NCBI GenBank assembly: GCA_035536255.1
Contig: DATLOP010000228.1
Location: 1 to 55,136 of the forward strand
DNA: 55,136 bases
Direction of reading: 5' to 3'
From: Solirubrobacteraceae bacterium
GTDB lineage: Bacteria; Actinomycetota; Thermoleophilia; Solirubrobacterales; Solirubrobacteraceae
A program made the position numbers and the translations under genes. The notes beneath the pieces were generated by a model. The model was given only the letters and a program-made list of their open reading frames with translations, ran no database searches and was not told the DNA's origin. Positions within the stretch are counted from its first letter, which is position 1. The number at the start of each line of letters is the position of its first letter. Of this stretch, positions 23,002 through 24,361 are shown in pieces.

Positions 23002-23262
23002 ATGCCCAAGAACGTAAAGGCAAAGGGAGGGGGCGAGATCGCCCGGACCAGGATCTCCTCCAAGCATCAGGTGACGATCGCCAAGCCCCCGTTCGACCAG
23101 GCCGGCTTCCGCGCCGGCGAAGAGCTCATCGTCCGCGCGCTGGGCCCCGGGCGGGTCGAGCTGACCGGGCTCGACGCGGTCTTGGACAGGCATCGCGGGA
23201 GGCTTTCGACCGGCGGCGCGCTGCGCCGGACGCTCGACGACCTGCGCCGCGAGTGGGACTAG
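23002..23262 (+). CDS. vapB: AbrB/SpoVT-MazE-fold antitoxin (VapB-like)
   Basis: 86 aa; RISSKHQVTIAKPPFDQAGFRAGEELIV is a swapped-hairpin AbrB-type motif. Overlaps the downstream PIN gene by 10 nt. Confidence 0.75.
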   Translation: MPKNVKAKGGGEIARTRISSKHQVTIAKPPFDQAGFRAGEELIVRALGPGRVELTGLDAVLDRHRGRLSTGGALRRTLDDLRREWD

Positions 23263-23699
23263 CGCTGCTGGACAGCTCGTCGGTCGTCGGCTACCTGGAC
23301 GCGGACGACCTGCTCCACGACGACGCGGTGGCGAAGGTCGAGGGCGCGGTGCGAGCGGGATCGGGCCTCGCGATCTCCGCGATCACGTGGACGGAGCTTC
23401 TGCACGGCGCGGCGGTCGGTCATCGCGCCGAGCGGGCGATCCGCGAGCTCGCGACCGACCTGGGCATCGCGATCCTGCCCGTCGACACGGCGGTCGCCGA
23501 GCGGGCGGCGGCGCTGCAGGGCGAGTACGCACGGCGATCGCCCGCCGGGCGAGCCCGCCGCCTGAAGACGCCGGACGCGCTCATCCTCGCCACCGCCGAC
23601 GTCGCCGCCGACGTCGACACCGTGATCTGCGGCGACGACCGCTGGCCGAAGGTCCCCGGCGCCCGCCCCCAGATCGTCCTCGTCCGCGAGCGACGCTAG
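23253..23699 (+). CDS. vapC: PIN-domain ribonuclease toxin (VapC)
   Basis: GTG start; LALLDSSSVVGYLDADD...ISAITWTELLHG...KTPDALILATA...VICGDD. The acidic PIN residues are in place. Confidence 0.8.
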   Translation: MGLALLDSSSVVGYLDADDLLHDDAVAKVEGAVRAGSGLAISAITWTELLHGAAVGHRAERAIRELATDLGIAILPVDTAVAERAAALQGEYARRSPAGRARRLKTPDALILATADVAADVDTVICGDDRWPKVPGARPQIVLVRERR

Positions 23700-23765
23700 G
23701 ACATTACGGTTCCTTGTTGCAGTGCACGACTGCGTCGTAACACTGTCCCTGGCACAGTCGCGGCG

Positions 23766-23987
23766 ATGTGGGATATCACTCACCACCGGCGATCCCGGCC
23801 GCTCCGCCCGGATTGCGCCGGGCGCAGCCAAAGACCCCCTTTCCAGGACTACCGGCACGGAACGTTGGAGATGTACGACCGCAGAGGCAGGCACCTAGGA
23901 GAGTTCGACCCGGAGACAGGCGAGCGATTGAAGGGGTCCGAGCGCGACCCGTACCATCGTCGTCTAGACGCTCATGTGGGCTCTTAG
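23766..23987 (+). CDS. Minimal colicin E3/cloacin-type ribosome-inactivating RNase domain protein (stand-alone)
   Basis: 73 aa. QDYRHGTLEMYDRRGRHLGEFDPETGERLKGSERDP aligns by eye with the colicin E3 C-terminus recalled from memory: WDSQHGELEGYRASDGQHLGSFDPKTGNQLKGPDPKR. No secretion or translocation domain. Local GC is lower. Confidence 0.65.
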   Translation: MWDITHHRRSRPLRPDCAGRSQRPPFQDYRHGTLEMYDRRGRHLGEFDPETGERLKGSERDPYHRRLDAHVGS

Positions 23988-24279
23988 GCAATACCACCCG
24001 GACACCGGCGAGCTGGTTAGCGAGCTCCACTTGCCGATGCTGCGCCTCGAAGATGCGGAGGAAGTGCTCGGCTTTGCGCCGACGAAGTTCGGCTCCACCG
24101 CACTTGACCCGGAAACGCTTCCGGCATTGCTCAGCCGGTTTGGGATGCGGGTCGAGCGCGGCGATCTGAAGTCGTTCTTGGACTTCGACGTCGACGAGCA
24201 CCCCTCGGCCGGCGACGTGACCACTCACGACAGCGCCGAAGATCTCCTCGACCACCTCGGTCGCGTCGACGGCGCGTGA
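23974..24279 (+). CDS. Small acidic protein, putative cognate immunity protein
   Basis: 101 aa, rich in Asp/Glu. Overlaps the toxin gene by 14 nt in a toxin-then-immunity order. Loose resemblance to the ImmE3 pattern (..YHPDTGELV..AEEVLGF..SFLDFDVDEH). Confidence 0.5.
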   Translation: MWALRQYHPDTGELVSELHLPMLRLEDAEEVLGFAPTKFGSTALDPETLPALLSRFGMRVERGDLKSFLDFDVDEHPSAGDVTTHDSAEDLLDHLGRVDGA

Positions 24280-24361
24280 TCCCAGCCTTCAACGTGGAGC
24301 CTGAGCTCCTGCCCTGCGCGGTAGGGCGCATCTCGGAGCGACGCGGCGTGTTTGCGTCTGC

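Follow-up and report, generated by a model that had tools for sequence, protein, structure and literature searches.

The closest described relatives of the locus considered here are colicin E3 and its immunity protein Im3 (1E44, 1JCH, 3EIP and 4V5K). The locus is a two-gene cassette in a contig of a Solirubrobacteraceae bacterium (GenBank assembly GCA_035536255.1, contig DATLOP010000228.1, positions 1 to 55,136; this whole stretch of 55,136 nucleotides (nt) is called the window below). In colicin E3, residues D510, H513 and E517 are essential, and mutation of R495, R497, E515 or R545 markedly lowers activity (Walker et al. 2004, as reported in PMC4905994). The role of a conserved histidine in the E3 fold is described in PMC3482391, and distant members of the Pfam family PF09000 (Cytotoxic) cut 16S ribosomal RNA (rRNA) between A1493 and G1494 (PMC9304027). 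The window locus has the toxin fold, the catalytic motif and the toxin-to-immunity gene order in common with colicin E3/Im3. However, colicin E3 has receptor-binding and translocation domains, a plasmid location and a lysis gene, all absent from the window cassette, whose ancestral toxin gene would have encoded the killing domain alone. The window copy also lacks the segment equal to residues ~36–54 of the E3 domain and is frameshifted.

Pyocin S6 resembles the cassette in its rRNase killing domain of 82 amino acids (aa) and its small downstream immunity gene (77 aa). Pseudomonas aeruginosa PAO1 carries the pyocin S6 toxin as a remnant, together with an intact immunity gene that protects experimentally (Dingemans et al. 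2016, PMC4905994), and the window locus has ended in the same state. The PAO1 remnant comes from a delivered pyocin of 571 aa and lies in a pyocin locus, whereas that of the window would come from a stand-alone 82-aa gene beside vapBC in a soil actinobacterium. A decay pattern like that of the window is also seen on the P. aeruginosa plasmid NZ_CP131792.1 (L100, 985–2868), where an array of orphan immunity genes ends in a pyocin S6-type toxin in two annotated fragments (profile positions 2–37 and 52–80, the catalytic stretch missing), followed by an intact 77-aa S6-family immunity gene.

The Tox-ColE3 tips of polymorphic toxins belong to the same domain family as the window toxin (Zhang et al. 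2012, PMC3482391). That study reports Imm-Cloacin and Imm45 as immunity proteins, delivery by type II, type V and type VII secretion systems, and stand-alone cassettes as suppliers of tips for polymorphic toxins; delivery-less E3 pairs are not described in it. The Mycobacterium tuberculosis systems RelS-RelI (PMC13284704) and RelE1 (PMC12620021) offer a functional analogy to an intact cassette: in each, a small toxin acting inside the cell cleaves 16S rRNA close to the 3′ end, and an inhibitor is encoded downstream. Their toxins have a RelE/RNase T1-like fold and not the E3 fold, the cleavage site is another one and the antitoxins are unrelated. RelS-RelI was considered as an E3-type system and rejected as RelE-like.

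We consider it highly probable that the window locus is a mobile E3-rRNase/Im3-like cassette that consists of a toxin pseudogene and an intact immunity gene. The putative imported cassette spans 23700..24361 (no strand assigned), between the stop of vapC and the start of a metallophosphoesterase gene, as delimited by synteny and GC content. The source genome is a metagenome-assembled genome (MAG) of 2.59 Mb in 392 contigs, estimated as 89% complete, and the window is a 55-kb contig of it.

The toxin remnant and its lesions

The remnant is contained in a 73-aa open reading frame (ORF) that starts with ATG (23766–23987, plus strand) and is a composite, non-native open frame. This ORF matches PF09000 at 36.4 bits (E 6.5e-9; cut-off 22), or at 35.3 bits in a six-frame search of the genome, and phmmer against the Protein Data Bank (PDB) retrieves chains 4UDM_B and 1E44_B of colicin E3 (E 2.7e-5). 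In the alignment with these chains, DYRHGTLEMY...GRHLGEFDPETGERLKG of the ORF pairs with WDSQHGELEGY...GQHLGSFDPKTGNQLKG of colicin E3, and D28, H31, E35 and H43 align with E3 D55, H58, E62 and the histidine of GQHLG. The initial annotation of this DNA, made from the sequence alone, had named the same motif pair and pointed to the Asp/His/Glu triplet; both are borne out by the PDB alignment, in which the triplet falls on the equivalents of D510, H513 and E517. Judged from these matches, the remnant is a genuine homolog of the colicin E3 rRNase domain. The Pfam match is, nevertheless, limited to profile positions 43–75 of 80 (ORF residues 28–60), whereas intact relatives match positions 1–80.

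The window's own two proteins returned almost nothing beyond one protein, P0001, in a word-based homolog search, and P0001 was needed as the query for the family search. A search for homologous proteins returned the partner as a window-encoded protein and not the 73-aa ORF. There were no matches in NCBIfam for the toxin ORF or the partner, in PADLOC for the toxin, the partner or related modules, or in PHROGs for the DUF7683-type pair.

P0001, the close relative from the word-based search, is a stand-alone 82-aa protein encoded on two contigs (L002 and L003). The P0001 N-terminus, MPYIPPPAIPPAFPTLRNVRRKTRY, shows no alignment to ORF residues 1–27 but is identical at 13 of 25 residues to the frame that begins at GTG 23768. 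We take this to be the native frame of the N-terminal segment of the toxin pseudogene (23768..23843, plus strand), which reads MGYHSPPAIPAAPPGLRRAQPKTPF. When the DNA is aligned with both P0001 contigs, the window shows one gap, of 50 nt. A second alignment (L007, L004, L072 and L002) added two Solirubrobacterales MAG loci (L007 and L072) and the same-family genome G018; there the gap lies directly after base 23843, the relatives all retain the 50 nt, and the segment 23768–23843 aligns gap-free with the DNA of the four relatives. The junction of the frame-shifting deletion is placed at 23843..23844 (plus strand) by this single gap of 50 columns. The start context GGCGATGTG is common to the window and L007, and the start of L007 must be GTG, because its ATG frame closes at once.

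A hidden Markov model (HMM) of the family, built from 78 relatives with the window left out, gave a similar division. Positions 45–77 were found in the frame of the ORF (52–56 bits) and positions 3–28 in the GTG frame (7 bits, E 0.002 over six frames), while positions 29–44 were absent from every frame. ORF residues 1–27, in the frame of ATG 23766, had no match to the family HMM or to Pfam. Pfam also misses the N-terminal piece in the GTG frame, whether alone or spliced, and the family HMM finds it weakly. The middle segment of the pseudogene (23844..23939, plus strand) reads QDYRHGTLEMYDRRGRHLGEFDPETGERLKGS in the frame of ATG 23766 and holds the equivalents of E3 D510, H513 and E517 along with the conserved histidine. 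As read from these alignments, the 73-aa ORF joins parts of two reading frames, and its first 27 residues are out-of-frame junk because the 50-nt deletion shifts the frame.

A second frameshift, a 1-nt insertion near 23937–23943, is probable. The probable ancestral 3′ tail (23941..23967, plus strand) lies in the third frame, where SATRTIVV is followed by a TAG stop at 23965–23967. This tail resembles those of relatives (DATRTVEP* in G018 and R[RT][VI]EP in the family), and with it spliced in, the family HMM scored 61.5 instead of 56.4 bits and its coverage ended at position 81 of 83 instead of 77; it is this likeness and the gain of ~5 bits that make the insertion probable. The last ~15 residues of the 73-aa ORF are then probably its product. 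If the insertion is real, the ancestral stop would have been 6 nt before the ATG of the partner, and the 14-nt overlap between the 73-aa and 101-aa ORFs would be a by-product of decay. The positions of the two ORFs and the length of their overlap had been correctly noted in the initial annotation, but the overlap is probably not a native arrangement.

The deleted 16–18 codons are the most conserved block of the family (GGLRKRW…IYEW) and correspond to P0001 residues 26–43 (RGGLRKRWKDQSGYIYEW). The invariant R32, W33, E42 and W43 of the family and the near-invariant R30 all sit in this block, which is kept in 29/29 aligned stand-alone members and in 38/38 large-toxin relatives, and even in the shortest natural variants (72 aa, in genomes G004 and G024). 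P0001 aligns with crystal chain 1E44_B (HMMER, E 2.3e-13), and the block pairs with E3 GGGKRKRWTGDKGRKIYEW. From these PDB-chain alignments, on which the residue equivalences rest, E3 R40 and R42 (R495 and R497) fall inside the deletion and D55, H58 and E62 (D510, H513 and E517) just after it, and an equivalent of R545 is present only in the displaced third-frame tail. The AlphaFold model of P0001 has a predicted local distance difference test score (pLDDT) of 92 and superposes on the E3 RNase domain 1E44_B with a template modeling (TM) score of 0.86, a root-mean-square deviation of 1.8 Å and 41% identity. In it, the deleted block makes up strands 28–29 and 32–34 and most of strand 40–44. Going by this model, the window remnant retains the D, H, E and H residues, but two to three sheet strands are gone, along with two important arginines.

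No complete PF09000 domain is found in one frame of the window copy, and we infer that the remnant product is inactive. The PF09000 assignment of the initial annotation was confirmed, well above the cut-off, but its proposal that the 73-aa product is a stand-alone minimal RNase does not agree with the deletion of the core, the frameshift and the partial Pfam match.

The partner gene and the DUF7683 family

The partner ORF (23974–24279, plus strand; 101 aa from ATG 23974) is intact and encodes an acidic protein (pI 4.44; 21 D+E versus 8 K+R). It is 42% identical (E 2e-14) to the 85-aa partner encoded in G018, which matches DUF7683 at 35 bits, and the gene downstream of P0001 (on L002) encodes a 94-aa DUF7683 protein (59 bits). 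Of the 80 aligned partners, which include that of the window, 77 match DUF7683 at E<=0.01. As a single query, the window partner found no solved relative by sequence, and the family profile was required. Built from the 80 partners, this profile matches Im3 (1E44_A, E 1.9e-4, residues 3–81 of 85) and a P. aeruginosa pyocin S6-family immunity protein (hhalign probability 93.5%, E 2.3e-7). The latter has no direct Pfam match to DUF7683, the profile comparison being the sole link.

The AlphaFold2 model of the partner has a mean pLDDT of 77, with values of 84–92 over residues 1–75. Its top Foldseek match in the PDB is Im3 (3EIP_A; probability 1.00, TM 0.63, E 0.02), the next matches having probabilities of ~0.5 or less. 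The modeled protein has an Im3-like fold and a disordered acidic tail. No helix-turn-helix, ribbon-helix-helix or AbrB domain was found in it by Pfam, in the model or by the fold search. By profile and by predicted fold, the partner gene appears as an intact, true distant homolog of the Im3 gene, and the acidic ORF had been rightly suspected to be an immunity gene.

The public gene call for the partner (P0002) is an 82-aa protein with an internal TTG start (MPMLRLED...). The start at ATG 23974, and with it the length of 101 aa, is supported by the N-termini of homologs, which begin with MWVIRAY (G018) or MWMIRAY compared with MWALRQY in the window, and by the confident N-terminal strand of the model.

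Among the best 80 loci of the family, a DUF7683-like gene lies directly 3′ of the E3 domain in 79, with stand-alone and large-toxin loci alike. Because of this and of the Pfam confirmation in 77/80, DUF7683 is, on the sequence evidence, the cognate immunity family of this E3 subfamily. There is no mention of DUF7683 in the literature searched.

Family, insertion site and related modules

A scan of species-representative genomes with a strict pattern gave 444 loci, and a profile search of 1.84 billion representatives gave 1,809 clusters at E<=0.001. Such proteins also have a name at NCBI ("colicin E3/pyocin S6 family cytotoxin"), so the family cannot be called rare. In 149/150 of the matches listed, the E3 domain lay at the very C-terminus or no more than a few residues from it. 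The best 80 loci comprise 36 short genes (<=135 aa) and 44 ends of larger proteins (137 aa to >1000 aa); several of the 38 larger proteins scanned carry Pyocin_S, ALF, haemagglutinin, RHS, PT-VENN, PT-HINT or WXG100 domains. In many short copies, which are 82–84 aa long, the ATG or GTG start coincides exactly with the domain boundary, as in G018, where an 82-aa toxin gene is found with the gene of the 85-aa partner. Some Pseudomonas short copies are truncated pyocins. The commonest junction between toxin and partner is a 4-nt overlap of the ATGA type.

Stand-alone copies have no recurrent neighbors: the 122 flanking ORFs match 149 Pfam families, each in no more than two ORFs, and no recurrent toxin-delivery genes were found in these flanks. 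In 12 genomes with stand-alone copies, 20/20 PF09000 matches sit in open frames of 85–120 aa, and these genomes therefore have no large E3 toxin that could use spare tips. The genome of L026, L027 and L045, an alphaproteobacterial MAG (G065), has five short PF09000 genes. Three of them are near-identical 116-aa copies with identical upstream sequence, a sign that the cassette may recently have multiplied in this genome. Delivery-less stand-alone E3 cassettes are not described in the literature searched.

At the window site, three genomes of the same genus (G001, G002 and G005) have gmd directly adjoining the metallophosphoesterase gene. In a fourth (G004) the order is gmd, vapB, vapC and phosphoesterase, with ~70 nt after vapC and no cassette. 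In the window, 662 nt follow vapC and contain the cassette. The vapBC pair of G004 is at the same site and 69% identical to that of the window; the pair is absent from G001, G002 and G005. From this distribution, the junction of gmd and the phosphoesterase gene took two successive small-cassette insertions. The window contig is collinear with the same-genus genomes on both sides, and the module is present in 2/61 related genomes.

The composition of the cassette also differs from that of its surroundings. GC content is 64.5% across 23700–24361 versus 73–76% in the flanking genes, in agreement with the local dip noticed earlier, and GC at third codon positions (GC3) is 0.80 in the cassette genes versus 0.93–0.97 in host genes. 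Because of the synteny, the GC3 contrast and the 2/61 distribution, the cassette reads as a recently acquired foreign insertion of ~0.6 kb. No flanking direct or inverted repeats convincingly bound it, and simple scans found no sigma-70-like promoter or intrinsic terminator at it. GC periodicity is of the coding type in the middle toxin segment in the frame of ATG 23766 (0.62/0.44/0.81) and in the partner gene (0.72/0.41/0.80); that of the short N-terminal toxin segment was uninformative. All three plus-strand frames are open over the region, which is 72% GC, so an open frame is little evidence of a gene here.

The vapBC pair directly upstream of the cassette (23002–23699) consists of vapB, whose 86-aa product is AbrB-like by eye and has no Pfam match, and vapC, whose 148-aa product matches the PIN family at 51.5 bits. 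Downstream, the window has one phosphoesterase gene; G005 has three tandem paralogs next to gmd (L092, G005:C1 73839–78676).

A different delivery-less E3 module was found in G004 and in the same-family genome G024 (L005 1173–1710 and 193–1212, both on the minus strand; L006 1176–1710, minus strand). It consists of a 72-aa PF09000 protein (45–47 bits), an overlapping 108-aa partner without a Pfam family and, as a third gene, an M78 (ImmA/IrrE) peptidase of 339–372 aa. Genes gp52–gp50 of Gordonia phage Phabuloso (ON526981.1; L098 2165–3990) match this module. Gp52, annotated as a "HicA-like toxin," is a protein with a PF09000 domain at its C-terminus (49.7 bits), phrog_12828 is common to gp51 ("HicB-like antitoxin") and the G004 partner, and gp50, annotated as a metalloprotease, is an M78-like peptidase. 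The HicA/HicB-like annotation is probably wrong. The phage module lies in the lysogeny region, flanked by the immunity repressor on one side and the integrase on the other. The gp52 gene recurs in two further Gordonia phages, and in all three phages the PF09000 protein precedes a partner and an M78 peptidase. Like the window family, it pairs a delivery-less PF09000 protein with a partner encoded downstream and occurs in actinobacteria and in phages that infect them; unlike the window pair, it belongs to another E3 subfamily, with another partner family (phrog_12828-like) and an M78 peptidase. This separate lineage supports an intracellular or defense use of the E3 fold.

Origin and function of the cassette

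In the sequence of events that we favor, the intact first gene would have encoded a complete 82-aa colicin E3/pyocin S6 rRNase domain and nothing else. By homology, this protein would cut the decoding center of 16S rRNA between A1493 and G1494 and stop translation, and the Im3-like (DUF7683) product of the second gene would bind and neutralize it. The cassette inserted between vapC and the metallophosphoesterase gene. A 50-nt deletion then took out the RKRW...IYEW core, including the equivalents of R495 and R497, and shifted the frame, and a 1-nt insertion probably moved the C-terminal tail out of frame. From the native GTG, translation would now enter a nonsense frame; from ATG 23766, the product would comprise 27 junk residues, 32 residues of the domain (Q27–S58) and an out-of-frame tail, and toxicity has presumably been lost. 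The immunity gene is intact and may, by analogy with PAO1, serve as orphan immunity against E3-type toxins of neighbors, or its decay may be pending.

Several points weigh against this reading. The assignment of the N-terminal frame is weak by HMM (7 bits) and is carried mainly by collinearity and the DNA alignment, the second frameshift is no more than probable, and the lesions are known from one MAG assembly. The catalytic D, H and E are still in an open frame, and some residual activity of the product may be conceivable. The window partner itself scores 18.2 bits against DUF7683, below the cut-off of 27, and over residues 1–35 only. Expression of the partner gene, or selection on it, is putative; it may act in orphan defense or may merely not yet have degraded.

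One alternative is an assembly or sequencing artefact. The organism would then have an intact 82-aa toxin and a live cassette, and the deletion and frameshift would have arisen in a MAG that is indeed fragmented, with 392 contigs and 89% completeness, at a junction that adjoins a C5 run. However, a loss of 50 nt is atypical of short-read consensus error, the two lesions appear to be independent, and the 55-kb contig is collinear with same-genus genomes on both sides. We regard this explanation as very unlikely.

The pair could also be an orphan C-terminal module, a leftover or a recombination cassette of a large polymorphic toxin of the Rhs, CdiA, ALF-repeat or pyocin type, as the initial annotation had offered as one of two origins. 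Large toxins do end in domains of this E3 subfamily and likewise have a DUF7683 partner, some short copies in Pseudomonas are truncated pyocins, and stand-alone cassettes have been regarded as a source of tips (PMC3482391). At the window locus, however, vapC and no toxin remnant is found upstream, the G004 site has no cassette, and a six-frame search of the 2.59-Mb MAG found only this one PF09000 copy. Close relatives start at the domain boundary and are 82–84 aa long, and both the frames of 85–120 aa in the 12 host genomes (20/20 matches) and the flanks of stand-alone copies, with no recurrent delivery genes, speak against such an origin, which we hold to be very unlikely. The lack of a delivery domain, noted from the start, is confirmed.

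That the 73-aa ORF encodes a functional, extra-minimal RNase of the E3 type in a live toxin–antitoxin (TA) pair with the overlapping ORF is hardly credible: its frame is open from the ATG, with the equivalents of D510, H513 and E517 and the conserved histidine kept, and its partner is intact and overlapping with vapBC beside it in a TA-rich neighborhood, but the first 27 residues match the family N-terminus only in another frame, the deleted 16–18 residues are the most conserved ones, with two to three strands and the counterparts of R495 and R497, even the natural 72-aa variants of G004 and G024 retain this block, and at 72% GC a frame is expected to stay open by chance.

For the intact family, an intracellular, TA-like or abortive-infection role is favored from sequence and context, because its members have an autonomous start, no delivery part, a sporadic mobile distribution and TA-rich surroundings. 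Recruitment of the E3 fold as a TA-like toxin, the other origin first suggested, thus fits the intact relatives, which are autonomous delivery-less two-gene cassettes, but not the window copy as a working system. Compared with type II TA systems, the intact family has the autonomous two-gene cassette, the small intracellular toxin with its cognate protein inhibitor and the sporadic mobile distribution. A DNA-binding or autoregulatory antitoxin domain is not found, the partner having the Im3-like fold only, and in this genome there is no live toxin, the gene being disrupted.

A broader interpretation is put forward tentatively, as possible but somewhat doubtful. The intact ancestors may be undescribed but widespread ribosome-targeting TA or abortive-infection cassettes of ~0.6 kb, each with a free 82-aa E3-type 16S rRNase restrained by an Im3-like (DUF7683) protein, that move among Actinomycetota, Cyanobacteriota, Pseudomonadota and other phyla. 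In the window the toxin would be dead and the immunity gene retained against the E3-tipped toxins of neighbors, for example Streptomyces, that use the same immunity family.

The E3 fold, an immunity family for it and the end state of a remnant with orphan immunity are already known. New with respect to the literature searched are the delivery-less stand-alone form of the cassette and DUF7683 as an Im3-like immunity family. The window copy itself is of little weight as a toxin, because it is dead. With the cassette family, Pfam DUF7683 gains a function, as the immunity family of an E3/pyocin S6 rRNase subfamily. The synteny series gives a view of the arrival and decay of a cassette, from the empty site through vapBC alone to vapBC with a cassette whose toxin is dead. 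Finally, the complete E3 killing domain is encoded in many phyla by a self-contained 82-aa gene beside its immunity gene, with neither delivery machinery nor a resident large toxin, and this autonomous form suggests a TA-like or defense role for a fold otherwise known only from bacteriocins and contact-dependent effectors.

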